From positions 1 to 31,551 of IMG/VR virus record IMGVR_UViG_3300020045_009140: DNA of 31,551 nucleotides, one strand, 5' to 3'. The notes under the pieces are model-generated. The model ran no database searches, was not told where the DNA came from, and was given only the letters and a program-made list of their open reading frames with translations. The translations under genes were made by a program, and so were the position numbers. Numbering within the stretch: the stretch's first letter is position 1; the number at the start of each line of letters is the position of its first letter. The stretch comes from a virus (taxonomy: Duplodnaviria; Caudoviricetes). Positions 1,202-31,503 of the stretch are shown here, piece by piece.

Positions 1202-1885
1202 CTATTTGAATAAATTACTCACGCTGGATGGGTAAAATATACCACCCCGGGATGATTTAAATCCACCATTATTCAATTGTTTAGCTATATCTTTGAGTGT
1301 CATCCCGCCTGTACGTAATGAGGTTGCCAACAATTTGGCCTTAATATTATTAGGATTGGAATTCTTTTTGACTTGCATAGCTTGCAGTCCTAGTATTCTG
1401 TTAGCATCACTGATGTGGCTACCATTACCCAGCTTAGTTATCTTATTACCTGCCTTAGATAAATGATATCCATCTTTTTTAATATTGGCCTTAATCACTG
1501 CCAGTGTATTTTTTGTACGTTCAGTTACCTTATCCACTTCGAGTTGTGCCAATGCCGCAAATAAATGTATTGTGAAATTGTTACAATCGGGTATATCACA
1601 TGCAACAAACTTCACACCAGTATCCATTAACCTAGAGGTGAAAGAGACATTTCTGGATAATCTATCTAGACGCGCGATTATTAACATACAATGATTTTTG
1701 CGCGCGAAGTCAATTGCCTTATTCAACTCTACCCTATTACTATTCCTACCAGATTCTTTCTCAGTGTAGCTGGCAACTATCACATCATCCGATTGGATGA
1801 AATTATTTATTATGGTCATTTGCGCGTCAAGCCCCAAAGACTGATCTTTGGTGGATACTCTTGTGTATGTTACATATTTTTGCAT
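1202..1885 (-). CDS. Small serine recombinase (resolvase catalytic domain plus short recombinase-type DNA-binding tail)
   Basis: YTRVST catalytic motif, EKESGR..R, ARLDRLSRN, C-terminal TLKDIAKQLN..GFKSSRGG. Confidence 0.92.
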   Translation of the reverse strand: MQKYVTYTRVSTKDQSLGLDAQMTIINNFIQSDDVIVASYTEKESGRNSNRVELNKAIDFARKNHCMLIIARLDRLSRNVSFTSRLMDTGVKFVACDIPDCNNFTIHLFAALAQLEVDKVTERTKNTLAVIKANIKKDGYHLSKAGNKITKLGNGSHISDANRILGLQAMQVKKNSNPNNIKAKLLATSLRTGGMTLKDIAKQLNNGGFKSSRGGIFYPSSVSNLFK

Positions 1886-2015: not shown

Positions 2016-2411
2016 TTATTCAATTGTCAATTCTGGTGTTAACTCTCGATATACCTTATCCTCCCATGTCCTGTAATACCATTGACCATCAGTAAACAAA
2101 TAGGCAAATTCATCAAATCTTAACTTCTTTTTGTTAGTGTGTTCCTTTGCCTCGGTTCCTTTTTCGTTCCTATCCCGGGCGTATGCGAATGTGATTAATC
2201 CCTCATCATTATCCGGGGTGGTGTCGGTGTCGCTTATACGTGAACATAAATAACTGATGTCACCTAATTCTAGCAAGGCTTTAACCCTATCGAGGGTGTT
2301 ATAATAAGTTAATAGAGTGGCTCCGACTCCGGTTAAATATCCATCGTTATGCGAGTAAATATCTTTATAAATTCCATTTTCGTTATATGCAATAAAACAT
2401 CTTGTAGACAT
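2016..2411 (-). CDS. Conserved phage hypothetical protein (MSTR...YxHxDGY family)
   Basis: Track ORF 2016..2582; ATG at 2411 gives MSTRCFIAY..IYSHNDGYLTGVGATLL, a pattern I recognise from phage proteins, and removes the overlap with 2461..2772. Confidence 0.82.
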   Translation of the reverse strand: MSTRCFIAYNENGIYKDIYSHNDGYLTGVGATLLTYYNTLDRVKALLELGDISYLCSRISDTDTTPDNDEGLITFAYARDRNEKGTEAKEHTNKKKLRFDEFAYLFTDGQWYYRTWEDKVYRELTPELTIE

Positions 2412-2772: not shown

Positions 2773-2826
2773 AATTTCAAAGATTTAAGTTAAACATTCT
2801 TACCTTGTAAAGATACGAATAAATAC

Positions 2827-3218: not shown

Positions 3219-4421
3219 TTAGAAAGACCAACCATTATTAGACCCCTTCAATAAATGCGAAATCAGATATCTGCTTGCATCAATTAAGTGATTCCATTTG
3301 TCGATTGGTTGCTCACCATTGATTTTCCAACTATAATTATTCAATTCTGTTATCAAATCGGTTGATTCCGGGTCAATAATCAGTTGGTAATTTTTCATTA
3401 GCATAATACCCTCCTTGACGGATCCTGCACCTTTTTTACAGCGTATTATGTTGACTCCGTCGGCTTTCATTTCATCGATTAAACGACCTTCCGCATTATC
3501 ACCAATAATTAAATTATTTCCGCATTCTTTTTTAAATATTTCAGATAACTGTTTGGTATTAAGCCCTTTTTGATATAAATGTTGCTTCAAATAGATTTTC
3601 ATTTGCTTTTTGTCGATATATCCACTCACTAGTGTTGAAGGGTCATTGGAATACCCCCAATCGGCACCAAAATTGACCTCAACATTAGCTGGAAATGTTC
3701 CAAGTGACCAATTTGTGAATACAACACCCTCCGATTTATCCAACCAACCCCCCATAACTATATGCTGGTAACGTTCGGGATGATTTAATCTCATGTGTTC
3801 TATTTCAGATAAGAAATCTTTACTCAGATGTTTATTGTCATGAAATGTAGTATGGATGTAACAAGTATCACCAATGACTGCATTCGTTCCCGGTTGCACT
3901 CCTCGCAATGCAAAGAATTTATTATATATCCAGTGCGTTTTAGTCGACGGATTTAAAATTAGGATGACCCGATTTTGTGTGTGATTGGCCCGGATGGATA
4001 AATTTATTTTATCGAATAATGATTCGTCGACTAGTTCCTCCGCCTCTTCAACTATGAGTGTAGTGATACCTTGGATACTCTTAAGCCTAGCACTGTTATC
4101 ACCGTTCGAAGTACGTAGACCCATGAAGAGAATCTTACTACCAGATTGCAGATTTATTATTTCATTTTTGGTGACTTCAAAATATTTGGTAAGTCCCATT
4201 AACTTAATCTTTTCGACCAATTCCGGGATAATCGAAATGTGTGCGGATACCATCGTTAGACGCGTGAACATGATGACGTGGTTCGCCTCAAATGTTAGCA
4301 TCACTAAAAAGCATGCAACGCTGAAAGATTTAGTTCCACCACGACCACCGGTTATTACGGTGTATCTTTGGTCATGTGTATATAGGGGTTTGAATTTCTG
4401 CGGTATTTGTATTTTTCCCAA
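3219..4421 (-). CDS. terL: Terminase large subunit (PBSX/SPP1-like family)
   Basis: Walker A GGRGGTKS, Walker B LIVEEAEE, LNP coupling motif, nuclease GADWGYSNDP and NHLIDASRY. Confidence 0.96.
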   Translation of the reverse strand: MGKIQIPQKFKPLYTHDQRYTVITGGRGGTKSFSVACFLVMLTFEANHVIMFTRLTMVSAHISIIPELVEKIKLMGLTKYFEVTKNEIINLQSGSKILFMGLRTSNGDNSARLKSIQGITTLIVEEAEELVDESLFDKINLSIRANHTQNRVILILNPSTKTHWIYNKFFALRGVQPGTNAVIGDTCYIHTTFHDNKHLSKDFLSEIEHMRLNHPERYQHIVMGGWLDKSEGVVFTNWSLGTFPANVEVNFGADWGYSNDPSTLVSGYIDKKQMKIYLKQHLYQKGLNTKQLSEIFKKECGNNLIIGDNAEGRLIDEMKADGVNIIRCKKGAGSVKEGIMLMKNYQLIIDPESTDLITELNNYSWKINGEQPIDKWNHLIDASRYLISHLLKGSNNGWSF

Positions 4422-5480: not shown

Positions 5481-5977
5481 TACTCTTCAGATATATTTGT
5501 TGAATGATTTGCCAAAAAGATTTGCCAAAGTTTTTCTCTTATTTGTATAACTATCGAAGGACATTGACAAGGCACCAGATGTTGGTTTAAAATTCTGTTG
5601 TATTTTTCGAACAGATAATTTCTATCCACATACCCAATTGACATATTATTTTTAATTCTTTTGATGAATTCGATTTCTTCACCGGTCATTTCTTTAGCAA
5701 TTAATGTGAACGGGAATAGCCTGTTTAATTTGGCTTGTCTCTCTTTACACTGCTCACATTGTTCTACTCCAACCGCATTAGTGACAAATTTGATTACATC
5801 ACCTACACCGGTTAATTGGTCAGTTGATGCTGATGCTCCGGTTAATTGTTCGGGTGTTGCTGTTACTATTGGACCAACCGCAGTTGTATCCGGTGTTACA
5901 ACTGGTTTTTTTACTGGTGCTTTTTTCACAGGGGTTTTCTTTTTCGGGGTATTCCCGTAATCTGGATATTTAGCCAT
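5480..5977 (-). CDS. Conserved Cys-motif phage protein (possible Zn binding)
   Basis: GVGDVI...CEQCKERQAKLN...PCQCP; Lys/Pro-rich N-terminus; coupled to the sigma gene. Confidence 0.8.
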   Translation of the reverse strand: MAKYPDYGNTPKKKTPVKKAPVKKPVVTPDTTAVGPIVTATPEQLTGASASTDQLTGVGDVIKFVTNAVGVEQCEQCKERQAKLNRLFPFTLIAKEMTGEEIEFIKRIKNNMSIGYVDRNYLFEKYNRILNQHLVPCQCPSIVIQIREKLWQIFLANHSTNISEE

Positions 5978-6471
5978 TATTTATATTTATTTTTTAGGTA
6001 TTTTTTTGTTGTTGCAATTGATGATTGAATAGTGTTAAATGATATTCCCGTTTGTCTTTCGATTTCCCTCATTGAGTTACCATCGACAACCACCAGCGCG
6101 AATAATTTAGAGTGGAACCATTCAAGATCAGCAAGTTCCTTCATAATGTTAGCATGTAAAATGTGGTTGTCGATGTCTTTAATTGCGTTATAATTGTAAA
6201 AATCTTGGTCCATCTCATCACTATATACATTTTCATCGTACTCCCTTTTTTTTATTGTGTTGGATTTATGCTCATTGTGGAATCGCACTATAGATGTATG
6301 TATATATCCGGCATTGATTGCATCGGGTGTTTTTGACATTTGCATATATTTCATATAAAAATTATTTACATAGTCATCCGCTTGCATTTTATCACCACAT
6401 ATTACCATTGCCATCTTTCTCCATTTTTCATCATCGGTAACTATTTCATCTATATTTTTGTAATAATTCAT
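5977..6471 (-). CDS. ECF-like sigma-70 factor / late transcription regulator
   Basis: Region-2-like ADDYVNNFYMK and region-4 HTH GNSMREIERQTGISFNTIQSSI; 164 aa. Confidence 0.8.
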   Translation of the reverse strand: MNYYKNIDEIVTDDEKWRKMAMVICGDKMQADDYVNNFYMKYMQMSKTPDAINAGYIHTSIVRFHNEHKSNTIKKREYDENVYSDEMDQDFYNYNAIKDIDNHILHANIMKELADLEWFHSKLFALVVVDGNSMREIERQTGISFNTIQSSIATTKKYLKNKYK

Positions 6472-6759: not shown

Positions 6760-6801
6760 TATATATTAAATAATAATATTAGTTTTTTATCAACATGGAT
6801 T
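6760..6801 (-). promoter_or_regulatory. Phage motif class A, AATCCA-N28-AATATATA
   Basis: Direct reading; upstream of 6582..6737. Confidence 0.6.
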
Positions 6802-6830
6802 TTTTAATGTTTTTTAATATCTTTGTATTA

Positions 6831-6902
6831 ATATTAATTTCTTTCAAAGAGGGGTTAACATTCTTACAACAAAAAGCCGCGTCTTAATTGATGCGGCTTT
6901 TT
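6831..6902 (+). ncRNA. Candidate trans-antisense sRNA 2 (~70 nt)
   Basis: TATCTTTG at 6818-6825, no ORF, strong terminator; 9-nt and 11-nt blocks complementary to the 5' leader of 2461..2772. Confidence 0.6.
6871..6902. terminator. Intrinsic terminator
   Basis: AAAAAGCCGCGTC-ttaatt-GATGCGGCTTTTT. Confidence 0.85.
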
Positions 6903-7702: not shown

Positions 7703-9436
7703 TTATTCTCCTAGTATTAAAATATTTTCTTTGGGAACTGTGAATTTCACCTTACCAATGTCAGTATCGAACCATTTATATATTTCATCTTGTGAAGTCA
7801 ATAAAATGCCTTTATTATCGTAGGTGGTAACTAACCACTGACCGATAAGACGATAAGCATATACTGTTCGAGATTTCATCCGGGTTGCATTACCATCGAT
7901 TAATAATTTCAGCGATGCTCCGGCGGTATTATTGCTCATGGTCAGATGTATATCCAATAACACATCACTACTGTTATCCATTTTCGTTATGTATATATTT
8001 TTTATGAACTGTTTGAAAATAGAAATGATGTCTGATCTGGATGTTGTTATATTTTTTAAATAATTTTCATCATTTTTAGCATTATTTATTTTTGATAATA
8101 AACTTTTTTGCTCATTTATTTGTTTACTAATTAGGTCGATTCGTTCATTAATGGTATCAACTTCTTTGGTTATATTTTCACTTCTCTGATTGTAGGTCAT
8201 TATAGTCATGCTACTATTTTCATATAAGTCCAATAGTTTCATTTCTTTGTTCTGTTGTTTTTTCAATAGCGATGTGTCCATTGATAATTGTTTATTTAAA
8301 TTATCCAATTCCATCTTTACACTAGATTTCATTTCATCGGTTTTGTCTAAAAATTTTAATAATACTTCGGTGCCAATAAGCATGTCATATATTACGCTGT
8401 CTAAATAAGTGATGTTCACTCCGGGGTTCCCACAATTACCACCTTTACTTAATCGGGAACTACAGATATATACCTTATCACCACCAACAACCGGTTTATA
8501 TTTCGCGAAAAAGTTCCTCCCACAAATACCACAAGTAATTAAATCTTTAAGCAAATAATCATATTTTGTGATGTGATTCGCATGTGTTTTTGTTTTTCGT
8601 ATGCTCATGCATTTGTCGAAAATTTCATCTGATATAATTACTGGTGCTTCGAGTATTTGGCCTTTAAATCTTCTTTGACCTTTGTATATCGTATTTTTTA
8701 AAATTTCATCAACTGTCTTATCTACCCAAATAATTTCATCAGCTGTTTTTTCGGTTGTAAATTTCATCAATTGCGTCCCAAACGATTTATTAATTCTGGT
8801 GGGTATCTTTTTTTCATTTAAATATCCAGCTATTTTTTTGAAGCCATTCCCATTTATATACATGTCAAAAATTTCTTTAATTATGATAGACTCCTCATCA
8901 TCAATAACTAATTGTTTATTTTCTAACTTCGTATAACCATACGGTAAATATTTACCGGCACCAGCGCGGCCGGATTTTGCCGATTGTAAAAGACCAGATT
9001 TCGTTCTTTTTTTCATTGTTTTGCTCTCAGAATCAGCGAATTCCATGAGGACCTGAAGGATGATATTCATGATGGAATCGCGTTCCAAATTTTCATCTAA
9101 CGTTTGCCGGTTAATCGAGGTGATATATATAGGTATCTTTTTTTCAGTCAGATTATCAATTAAATTTCTGGTTGCTTTGGGGTCTCTTCCAAGCCGTGAA
9201 ATCTCGGTGATATAAATTGCGTCAAAATAATTAGGATCTGCATCAATTATTTCTAACATCTTGGATAATTGCGGTCGGTGTTCATTTGGCTTATATCCGC
9301 TTATTTGTTCAGCGAAAATTTCAATATCATCATTACTGTATCTATCACCAATTGCGGTTTTGCAATCGCTTATTTGCCTAGTATAATCCTGCTTGTCGAT
9401 TGTTGATACCCTTGCATATATGCACACTTTTGTCAT
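7703..9436 (-). CDS. int: Large serine integrase
   Basis: YARVST, EISRLGR, PYGY, recombinase domain (ILKNTIYKG), zinc ribbon CGICG...YICS...C, coiled coil. Confidence 0.95.
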   Translation of the reverse strand: MTKVCIYARVSTIDKQDYTRQISDCKTAIGDRYSNDDIEIFAEQISGYKPNEHRPQLSKMLEIIDADPNYFDAIYITEISRLGRDPKATRNLIDNLTEKKIPIYITSINRQTLDENLERDSIMNIILQVLMEFADSESKTMKKRTKSGLLQSAKSGRAGAGKYLPYGYTKLENKQLVIDDEESIIIKEIFDMYINGNGFKKIAGYLNEKKIPTRINKSFGTQLMKFTTEKTADEIIWVDKTVDEILKNTIYKGQRRFKGQILEAPVIISDEIFDKCMSIRKTKTHANHITKYDYLLKDLITCGICGRNFFAKYKPVVGGDKVYICSSRLSKGGNCGNPGVNITYLDSVIYDMLIGTEVLLKFLDKTDEMKSSVKMELDNLNKQLSMDTSLLKKQQNKEMKLLDLYENSSMTIMTYNQRSENITKEVDTINERIDLISKQINEQKSLLSKINNAKNDENYLKNITTSRSDIISIFKQFIKNIYITKMDNSSDVLLDIHLTMSNNTAGASLKLLIDGNATRMKSRTVYAYRLIGQWLVTTYDNKGILLTSQDEIYKWFDTDIGKVKFTVPKENILILGE

Positions 9437-10735: not shown

Positions 10736-10858
10736 TTTTATACAATATTAGTCTTAAGTCAGTTGAAAAATAAAAAGTAAGAAACGGACTCCAAATATTA
10801 TTTTTTGTTGTATATTTGCGATGTAAGAATTTAATATATACTTAAAGAAAAAAATATT

Positions 10859-11248
10859 ATGAAAAAAATACTGATGATTGCCTTATTCGCCGTGTTCGGA
10901 TGTTCAAATGATTCTGAGATTGAAACTACACCAACCGGTTATTATTACTTTTTCGAAACTTTTAGAATCGAAACTTTTTACCAAAACCCTGCGGATGGTT
11001 CATTTTCTTTGAAATATCCAAACGAAAAACTGGTTAAAAAAAGTGATGGGATTTATTATGTAAATGGTGGCAAAGTCATTAATTATGTACAAAGTTCAAC
11101 ACTGATTTCAAGTCAAAAAACGTTTATCCCGGGTGATTTTTTACATGACGAAATAAGAAATCGAGTTTATAAAATCGAACCGGATGTAAGTGGTGTTACC
11201 ACTACCTATATAACTTATCCCTACGGTGTCATACCGACAAGAAAATAA
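10859..11248 (+). CDS. Lipoprotein, moron-like
   Basis: MKKILMIALFAVFG-C signal peptide II followed by SNDSE; promoter box TATATTTG at 10811-10818. Confidence 0.85.
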   Translation: MKKILMIALFAVFGCSNDSEIETTPTGYYYFFETFRIETFYQNPADGSFSLKYPNEKLVKKSDGIYYVNGGKVINYVQSSTLISSQKTFIPGDFLHDEIRNRVYKIEPDVSGVTTTYITYPYGVIPTRK

Positions 11249-27911: not shown

Positions 27912-28103
27912 ACATATACAAATAATATGTTTACCCTTTTTTTATCATCAATCAATATCAATTATCCATCATCAATCAATCAACCATTAAAACATATACA
28001 AATAATATGTTTACCCTTTTTTTATCATCAATCAATAATCAATTATCCATCATCAATCAATCAACCATTAAAAACATATACAAATAATATGTTTACCCTT
28101 TTT
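27912..28103. repeat. Tandem repeat, ~80-82 bp unit x2.4
   Basis: Units start at 27912, 27992 and 28074 with ACATATACAAATAATATGTTTACCCTTTTT, followed by ATCA-rich tracts. Confidence 0.92.
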
Positions 28104-28161
28104 CATAAATAATACGACCGGCCCACCACAGGCCGTGGCTTAATATCACAAAACATTAAAA

Positions 28162-28202: not shown

Positions 28203-28345
28203 GTATGTAAGAAATTATTATATAAACTTTTTTAAAGTTTTTGGATATAACTATTATAGAGGGTCCCGGGAAGTAATTAGCCCGGGTGCTGGACCTCTTA
28301 AAAAAACCAGAAAAACAAAAAATAATCCAGCATAAATTGACAACA

Positions 28346-29560
28346 ATGATTCCCACAACAATTATCGAGACGGTGCATGACTACACATCGATGACAAATT
28401 ACACACACAAACAAAAAATAGCATTAGAAAAAATACTATTAGAAATTTGGATTTTCATTTACGATAAACAAATAACAGATAAAGATTTTATCAATATGAA
28501 ATGCTACACAAATATCCACTCTAATGACCTATCACATTTCAGAATAAAAATAGATGGTAAAAATATTTCATCAAATAAATTAATAGACATCCTTGTAAGT
28601 CTTAAAATACTTTCAAAAAACGGAAAATACTCAACCGGATCCTTCACAAGTGCTTATAAAATAGAAACCTCAATACTTTCATTTGGAAATTTAACACAGG
28701 TTGAACTTGACATTGAAAAAGTTTTCAAAAATATAAGACCTAAATCACATTGGTTAGGCTTATACCCAAAATTCAGCCACCTAATAGAGGATATATATTC
28801 GACATCGATTAGATTGGATGATTATCTGCACTACTTATTAAATAATATCGGGATGCAATTACATCCAAAGACTGTAAAAATGAACATCAAAGGCAAAGAT
28901 ATATCCTTTGTCAAGGAACAATTCCTAACCGAAGCAAAAGCATTTCAATACATACACATGGCAATGAAAATAAATATTGGTAACATTTGGGTAGCTGAGT
29001 TCACCACCGGCAGATTCGCATCATCGGTGTCAAATATGTCATTTACAGCTACCAAATTTTTCCAAATGGATAGAAATAATTTGGTAGACATAGACATAAA
29101 GAACTCACAGCCATTATTATTGGCTTCATTAATCGATTGTCCAGCATATAAAAAAGATGTTGAAAATGGTATATTTTACGATAATATGGCTAAACAAATA
29201 TGCGAAATAAACAAGGAAGAGTACACCAAACAACACCGAGAAATGTTCAAAACGAACAGTTACAGATACATATTTTTCAATAACAATACATTGGGAACAA
29301 CGGGTGAGATAGCAAAAGCGATGAATAAACTTTACCCGGATGCATTAGACCAAATAAATAAATTAAAAGAGAATGGAACACTAGCTGGTAAACTTCAAAG
29401 ATTAGAGGCTGATATTTTTGTTGATTTTATTGGTGCACTAGGGATAAAAAAACTGCTTAGACATGACCAAGTACTGATTGCACCGGGATATGAACGAATG
29501 GTAAAAACATTACTCATAAATAAATATGCTGAGCTGGGTCTTAATGTAAGTTTTGGATAA
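28346..29560 (+). CDS. Family-A-polymerase-like (TV-Pol-type) putative replication protein
   Basis: GRF, motif A DIDIKNSQP, motif B REMFK..SY, LQRLE, motif C RHD; ATG 28346 preferred over GTG 28286. Confidence 0.65.
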   Translation: MIPTTIIETVHDYTSMTNYTHKQKIALEKILLEIWIFIYDKQITDKDFINMKCYTNIHSNDLSHFRIKIDGKNISSNKLIDILVSLKILSKNGKYSTGSFTSAYKIETSILSFGNLTQVELDIEKVFKNIRPKSHWLGLYPKFSHLIEDIYSTSIRLDDYLHYLLNNIGMQLHPKTVKMNIKGKDISFVKEQFLTEAKAFQYIHMAMKINIGNIWVAEFTTGRFASSVSNMSFTATKFFQMDRNNLVDIDIKNSQPLLLASLIDCPAYKKDVENGIFYDNMAKQICEINKEEYTKQHREMFKTNSYRYIFFNNNTLGTTGEIAKAMNKLYPDALDQINKLKENGTLAGKLQRLEADIFVDFIGALGIKKLLRHDQVLIAPGYERMVKTLLINKYAELGLNVSFG

Positions 29561-30923: not shown

Positions 30924-30963
30924 GTAATATGTGGTAATGTGAGTGGTGATGGTAAGAACGTGA

Positions 30964-31503
30964 CTAACTTAATAGTTCTTTGATTGATTGGGTGCGATTA
31001 TAAATTTTCATTAAATTTTCATCAGCACAAAAAAAACCACCTATACATACTGGTATCCCGTCCAATGAAGTTAGTTTATTAAAAATACACATATAATACC
31101 CACCCACTGTAACCGGTCCACCAATTAAATTAGTTAATTTATTAACACCACAACTAAAAGCCCCACCTACCCTAACCGGTGAACCCTCTAATGAAGTTAA
31201 TTGATTTTCACTACAATAAAAATTACCCCCTATACTCACCGGTGAACCCACCAGAGAAGTCAATCGATTACTGCTACAATTATAAGTACCACCAACGTTA
31301 ACTGGTACACCCACTAATGAAGTCAAATGGTTATTCCTACAATCGAAATTACCACTGACTTTATTAAATACCAATGGTAAAGCAATCAATTTACAAAAAC
31401 TTAAATCAACCTCACCATCCACATCAATAGACATATCATCATTGATTGTGTAGTTTACAATTTCATATTTCTTACAAATAATTTTAATCTCTTCTGTTGT
31501 CAT
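30964..31503 (-). CDS. Leucine-rich-repeat-like protein
   Basis: Five 21-aa repeats VGGxFxCxxNxLTSLxGxPxx (63-bp period). Confidence 0.88.
   Translation of the reverse strand: MTTEEIKIICKKYEIVNYTINDDMSIDVDGEVDLSFCKLIALPLVFNKVSGNFDCRNNHLTSLVGVPVNVGGTYNCSSNRLTSLVGSPVSIGGNFYCSENQLTSLEGSPVRVGGAFSCGVNKLTNLIGGPVTVGGYYMCIFNKLTSLDGIPVCIGGFFCADENLMKIYNRTQSIKELLS

Follow-up and report, generated by a model that had tools for sequence, protein, structure and literature searches.

The window analysed here, the whole stretch of 31,551 nucleotides, is a phage record that is complete at 31.4 kb and has a terminal repeat of 121 nt. It encodes portal, head proteins, holin and endolysin besides the genes given in Table 1. 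Relatives with the same gene order are found as prophages of Flavobacterium genomes, the hosts including F. azizsancarii, F. enshiense and F. qiangtangense, so that the window is most likely a temperate phage of the Flavobacterium type. A short cassette (6818-6902) is placed between a weakly sigma-like gene and the integrase region. Its predicted target is the leader of gene 1, which is transcribed in the opposite direction together, probably, with gene 2; a bidirectional terminator (1981-2007) comes after gene 2. Elsewhere in the window, three 46-nt direct repeats with a spacing of about 81 nt (27912-28119) lie upstream of a 424-aa ORF (28286-29560), which is conserved in the relatives, has no database match, and carries what we take, by eye, to be family-A polymerase-like motifs. 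The repeats and the ORF are likely to be the origin and a replication gene.

Table 1. Features of the window that bear on the cassette and its predicted target
Feature	Position	Strand	Remark
Small serine recombinase	1202-1885	-	3' of gene 1 in 10/10 syntenic phages and in many other elements
Gene 2, phrog_1987	2016-2411	-	probably co-transcribed with gene 1
Gene 1 (target), 103 aa	2461-2772	-	soluble alpha/beta protein; weak phrog_9437
5' leader of 31 nt, predicted target	2773-2803	-	25-bp duplex with 2 G-U, -25.8 kcal/mol
Target promoter box TATCTTTA	2808-2815	-	one base off consensus; predicted +1 = 2803
Terminase	3219-4421		
Weakly sigma-like gene	5977-6471		
Small-RNA promoter box TATCTTTG (sigma-A, -7)	6818-6825	+	matches consensus; predicted +1 = 6830
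5' hairpin	6834-6858	+	contains 6842-6850 and GGGGTT; from folding
Toehold, mostly single-stranded	6857-6867	+	complement of message +1 to +11 (2803-2793)
Intrinsic terminator hairpin with U tract	6871-6902	+	from folding
Large serine integrase	7703-9436		
Possible second target, leader of lipoprotein-like gene 10859-11248 with its promoter box	10811-10861	+	-17.9; same 8 nt from the predicted +1 as in the gene 1 message
GTAAGAA copies	2972, 3062, 10777, 10823, 28207, 30952	+	
GTAAGAA copies	2803, 6867, 31475	-	

The TAnnTTTG box of flavobacteria is described as occupying positions -12 to -5 (PMC9723704), and from this the start of the RNA is predicted at 6830 and that of the target message at 2803. 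The predicted RNA is 73 nt long (6830-6902) and consists of a 5' hairpin, an unpaired stretch and the terminator. Its whole fold reaches -25.1 kcal/mol (z -6.8), a value attained by none of 200 shuffles. The preliminary description had read the locus as a promoter box, about 70 nt without an ORF and a strong terminator. Box and terminator are indeed present at 6818-6825 and 6871-6902, but the absence of an ORF holds for conserved ones only, since a 30-codon ORF (6795-6887), starting upstream of the promoter box, overlaps the cassette. No Rfam family was matched by the window cassette at E<=1, nor, at the gathering score, by any of six loci, among which L003, L035 and L034 contain a cassette.

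The product of gene 1 has a confidently predicted structure (pLDDT 87.9) and no named relative in the collections searched: no Pfam family, no PDB match by Foldseek at E<=0.001, only unnamed proteins in the viral structure library (best VIA Z 6.4, inside the common range), only hypothetical clusters in the Atlas, and no named domain in three gene-1 fusion proteins. The gene is widespread, with 888 representatives at E<=0.001 and an occurrence in 32 of 401 genus genomes; it usually lies 5' of the small serine recombinase and is also found within large phage proteins. Gene 2 was found in 3 of 401 genomes and in 2 of 401 family genomes, and an alignment search with it reached 79 viral loci, none from the family of the window phage. 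From its short promoter-led leader and its position, gene 1 is probably an early gene. In islands made of gene 1 plus the recombinase (L138-L140, L142, L144; also L020, L022, L043, L046, L051), a complement of the leader lies directly 3' of the gene 1 stop on the same strand. It is the top local match in 5 of 6 such elements, and its sequence changes in step with the leader; either silencing by 5'-3' fold-back or an inverted repeat in the DNA may explain it. The spread of gene 1, its recombinase neighbour, its occurrence in large proteins and these post-stop complements suggest that the gene is under repeated pressure toward silencing.

Two blocks connect the cassette with the leader. TTTCAAAGA (6842-6850) recurs at 2775-2783 and AACATTCTTAC (6857-6867) recurs at 2793-2803, with spacers of 6 nt in the cassette and 9 nt in the leader. 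The segment 6842-6850 is the complement of the start-proximal leader, and the adjacent GGGGTT pairs partly via G-U. One end of the duplex coincides exactly with the predicted +1 of the message and the other stops 3 nt before the AUG. These points bear out what the preliminary description had claimed: both blocks of the match, the location of the target between the minus-strand box (2815-2808) and the ATG (2772), complementarity to nearly the whole leader (25 pairs over 31 nt), and partial G-U pairing in the gap (two G-U in the duplex). A small correction is that this box departs from the consensus at one base. Ranked by duplex energy, the leader is likewise, as anticipated there, the best non-self site in the phage for the RNA (-25.8). 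It stayed first when the best 250 of 3121 windows were rescored with folding costs included, at -17.5, the next locus having -12.0. Comparison with shuffled RNAs gave a divided answer to the expectation that they would score worse: 3 of 28 equalled or beat the raw energy genome-wide, whereas none of 579 did so against 43 start-codon regions. Within the window genome alone, the match is of moderate strength. A second complement of the leader (30951-30992, minus strand) is stronger than the cassette (-29.2) and beats all 22 leader shuffles; it covers the last codons and the 3' flank of the gene 30964-31503, without promoter or terminator, and an equivalent is absent from the top matches in G001.

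Relatives were collected by alignment of 23 gene-1 proteins, which gave 119 loci, 79 of them non-redundant including the window; two more were obtained via the recombinase. Ten elements were chosen by shared gene order, and a cassette complementary to the element's own gene-1 leader is present in six of these (the window, W, and G001, G002, G003, G004 and L066). Two others, L056 (5.4 kb) and L057 (17 kb), are fragments, and G001, a near twin of L057, has its cassette 28 kb away. The remaining two, G803 and G804, have no cassette though their att/sigma region is covered, so that the cassette is dispensable to the family; gene 2 is missing there as well, and their integrase is another one, of tyrosine-type appearance. 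Three non-syntenic elements (L035, G805, G599) were added after a match in an early screen and do not form an unbiased sample. L035 and G805, unrelated elements with gene 1, have clear cassettes, and in G599 the complement lies directly 5' of a terminator on the gene's own strand, with no promoter box nearby. The RNA body is identical in G003 and L066, so that eight pairs represent seven distinct RNAs, and the target proteins of the other pairs are 36-67% identical. The copies form a direct repeat in 6 cases and an inverted one in 2, at distances from -5.3 to +30 kb. Cassettes of the family lie near the integrase/att end, whether the neighbour is the sigma-like gene or the lysis genes. An alignment of six cassettes by MAFFT was too divergent for a covariance model.

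Other searches defined the limits of this sample. Single-protein searches of viral contigs returned no relatives. For the exact two-block DNA pattern there were 11 viral matches; not one of them has a protein in common with the 17 window ORFs compared, and they were set aside as chance. In the first cassette screen, which covered the 79 non-redundant gene-1 loci with at most 10 kb on each side, most loci had no such cassette in that range, and the top matches (L120, L029, L132, L032, L031) were inverted copies of the promoter-leader of another gene. Weaker candidates are GU-rich stretches directly before terminators in L101, L114, L129, L027 and L076, which are partly complementary to the AC-rich leader. 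Hand-written terminator finders missed cassettes (those of W, G001, G003, L066 and L035), and the cassette counts rest on a later census.

This census was blind to complementarity and gave 44 promoter-plus-hairpin cassettes in 13 elements. In each of 8 elements, one cassette has a duplex energy of -21.7 to -34.4 with the leader of gene 1 (that of G002 being counted twice), and the best of the other 35 reaches -12.1; among control pairs of cassette and leader, -20 was attained by 5 of 436. When each of the eight RNAs was paired with each of the eight leaders, folding included, its own leader was the best (-13.9 to -22.2) with the exception of L066, whose RNA, having the body of that of G003, binds the G003 leader better. 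Some cross-talk is predicted as well: the G004 RNA would act partially on the window leader, and the window RNA on that of G001. Seven of the eight cognate pairs beat all of 1000 shuffles, and the L066 pair was matched by 5. In 8/8, the limit of pairing lies at -2 to +1 relative to the predicted message start, and the promoter is never entered. From +1 to +11, 87 of 88 cells pair; 48 of these are the anchor, and 39 of the 40 in the remainder pair. Among the cognate pairs, 9 of the 11 positions of this stretch show 2-5 pair types; non-cognate pairs have a mean of 6.9/11 over it. The leaders of G003 and L066 have gained internal hairpins, one of which separates the two pairing blocks in G003, yet the match persists at the first bases and in the start-proximal block. 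A 5' hairpin is predicted in all eight cassettes, with differing sequences.

RNA and leader thus co-vary across related phages, a check that the preliminary description had proposed, and we regard a real, conserved trans-antisense RNA/leader pair as likely from this pattern in the sequences. The further claim of that description, a dedicated trans-acting silencer of the operon, stands in part. The covariation supports a dedicated antisense RNA against the leader, but the operon wording exceeds the evidence, since only the leader of the first gene is paired and a bidirectional terminator follows gene 2. An effect of the RNA on genes beyond gene 1 would be indirect.

With good confidence, the cassette can be taken as a promoter-to-terminator unit whose predicted 73-nt RNA, complementary to the gene 1 leader, likely blocks translation of gene 1 in trans. 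Initiation in Flavobacterium is reported to be favoured by low structure and by adenines at -3, -6, -12 and -13 (PMC7797042). In Bacteroidetes, for which no obvious Hfq or ProQ is reported, pairing of the RNA GibS at the start region is described as repressing messages without a Shine-Dalgarno sequence (PMC7366714). In the proposed course of events, message bases +1 to +11 would be captured by the unpaired toehold, after which the 5' hairpin would open and pairing would extend up to 3 nt short of the AUG. Flavobacterium ribosomes depend on an initiation region that is unstructured and contains A; this region would thereby be buried, and decay of the message would probably be hastened too. The RNA would be made steadily from its consensus promoter, mostly near the integrase/att end, a position consistent with the predicted expression in the lysogen. 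The RNA promoter has the consensus box, final G included, in 7/8 cognate cassettes against 2/8 target promoters, from which the RNA would be expected in excess. Gene 1, probably an early gene, would stay silent in the lysogen, as it would in a superinfecting phage that shares the leader; in a naive cell it would be translated until the RNA accumulates.

Second targets were also considered. The second-best promoter-led leaders belong to lipoprotein-like genes in the window (-17.9) and G001 (-13.5) and to the recombinase in G002 (-20.9); they match the toehold at +1 or cover the start codon, and no clear second promoter-led target was found in the remaining cassette elements. The lipoprotein-like gene of the window (10859-11248, plus strand) has its own promoter, runs against the direction of the lysis genes, and has equivalents in G001, G803 and G804. 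It is a candidate superinfection-exclusion moron.

A wider role for the RNA may be put forward tentatively. Lysogeny and superinfection immunity might be held by an RNA rather than by a repressor protein, with a relocatable antisense RNA reading the first bases of a master early message and co-varying toehold/leader pairs setting the immunity groups; this is doubtful enough to be offered as a conjecture. No match to a helix-turn-helix repressor family came from a scan of the 40 main window ORFs and of 100 further ORFs, drawn from the window and from five relatives; short or divergent repressors, or those in unscanned ends, could escape it.

Such a role would be like that of P4 CI and P1/P7 C4, in which a phage RNA acts on a message of its own phage to hold lysogeny. 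C4 sequences are phage-specific and define immunity groups. P4 CI is described as pairing with two separate sequences, seqA and seqC (PMC4825925), and P1 C4 as controlling ant (PMC8201110). Pairing at two target segments is common to both and is found in the predicted two-block duplex as well. However, P4 CI is processed from the transcript that it controls and causes termination, whereas the window RNA has its own promoter and terminator on the opposite strand, 4 kb away. RNAs of the window type are unlinked and mobile, lying 1-30 kb from the target in the relatives, pair from the +1 base, and have no Rfam match. The RNAs of the CI and C4 class act on an antirepressor or a replication operon; gene 1 has neither a Pfam family nor a clear fold match. 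The antisense RNAs sar of P22 and OOP of lambda are encoded in cis, opposite their targets, and overlap them, whereas the window RNA (6830-6902) would be trans-encoded with respect to its target at 2773-2803 and pair imperfectly. Together with aQ of lambda and STnc6030 of BTP1, which are likewise made opposite their targets, they are described as phage antisense RNAs repressing a phage gene, and STnc6030 as giving superinfection exclusion (PMC12197685). A layout like the present one is that of GibS of Bacteroides thetaiotaomicron, reported as trans-encoded and repressing via pairing at the initiation region (PMC7366714), and the predicted likeness extends to an unlinked locus, a separate promoter and terminator, and imperfect pairing at the initiation region. 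By that account, GibS is encoded in the chromosome, keeps its seed conserved and acts on metabolic targets, whereas in the window type the seed changes with one phage target. No description of such an RNA in Flavobacterium or Bacteroidetes phages was found in the literature searched (titles and abstract openings).

The same RNA-RNA pairing could serve a different role. If gene 1 is toxic, the RNA may be a type I-style antitoxin, unlinked to the toxin gene, and serve to stabilise the element; we hold this as possible but rather improbable, and it departs from the silencing of an early gene in role, with the same mechanism. Type I toxin messages have folded-back ends, and the leader complement just after the gene 1 stop in other elements (5/6) is like these. 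In the par/Fst system, RNA II is described as a short RNA with pairing blocks that derive from direct repeats read oppositely, the variable blocks giving specificity (PMC7472228). The cassettes resemble it in having two element-specific blocks, which are a direct repeat in 6/8 and inverted in 2, and in a predicted cognate specificity. However, the par/Fst genes are convergent and share a bidirectional terminator, whereas the window pair has neither feature and lies 4 kb apart, and the par/Fst toxin is a short hydrophobic peptide, whereas the target here is, from its modelled structure, a 103-aa globular protein of the soluble alpha/beta kind. The lack of the cassette in G803 and G804, and within the screened range at most of the 79 gene-1 loci, also speaks against a stabilising antitoxin. 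The RNA would work like P4 CI, P1 C4 and type I antitoxins, yet does not share the layout by which each of these is defined.

A reading of another kind takes the shared blocks as protein sites in DNA and the RNA as incidental. The sites would be those of the serine recombinase, or else an operator that spans +1 and has a decoy or autoregulatory copy. GTAAGAA occurs in 9 copies in the phage, 8 of them outside genes (the ninth was scored intergenic only owing to where the circle was cut), which makes it the most intergenic of 372 comparable 7-mers. It stands at the predicted +1 of two promoters, and G001, L057 and L056 have further copies 5' of gene 1. The equivalent 7-mers are much less intergenic in G002 (3/23), G003 (10/25), L066 (4/11) and G805 (1/5). 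Protein sites would moreover leave unexplained the second block, the G-U bias, the conserved hairpin-toehold-terminator fold and the stop at +1, and the transcript is antisense in every orientation of the copy. The sense duplex was stronger than its mirror image in 7/8, as G-U pairing predicts, by a modest margin of 1.5-4.0 kcal/mol. DNA sites with an incidental RNA are accordingly unlikely. GTAAGAA may still be an operator overlapping +1, or a site for a phage regulator, and as such could coexist with the antisense RNA.

That the cassette is a relic duplicate of a promoter-leader module, or chance in AT-rich DNA, is less probable still. Such duplicates exist in the gene-1 family (the five inverted copies of the first screen), and 3/28 shuffles do reach the raw energy. 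However, the known duplicates run into the promoter box and mostly through the start codon, whereas the eight cassettes stop at +1, have their own promoter and terminator, and follow the changes of their own leader; this covariation largely refutes the reading as far as sequence comparison goes. Least probable of all, and scarcely credible, is a gene for a 30-aa membrane peptide at 6795-6887, for the ORF is hydrophobic but has its ATG upstream of the promoter box and a frame not kept in the other 7 cassettes.

Translation in Bacteroidetes starts without Shine-Dalgarno initiation, and few trans-acting RNAs have been characterised in this group. Prophage silencing in Flavobacterium is poorly described, and the locus offers a concrete candidate switch that can be tested cheaply. 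It also flags an uncharacterised, widespread gene as one worth keeping off. The seven distinct RNA/leader pairs found in nature, in each of which a preference for the cognate partner is predicted, are ready for swap experiments, and could serve as orthogonal RNA regulators for Bacteroidetes.

A second conserved cassette lies close to the target genes. At about 1935-2007 on the plus strand, a second promoter-like box with a GTTGGTGC-like start is followed by about 60 nt and then by a terminator. The unit converges on gene 2 and is found at the same place in L056, L057, G001-G004 and L066, and no consistent phage target of it was found. In G002 (L048), genes 1 and 2 are flanked by a near-perfect 62-bp inverted repeat at about -227 and +920 from the gene-1 ATG. 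This repeat contains the promoter of the second cassette and adjoins the small serine recombinase, and a shorter repeat is present in L066; genes 1 and 2 of G002 are possibly an invertible segment. Accessory slots occur after gene 2 or the recombinase (L039 11004-11225, L048 12619-14759, L049 11930-12439), and their contents vary by relative: a HicA toxin, a GmrSD/HNH nuclease with an EcoRI-type methylase, and a Panacea antitoxin.
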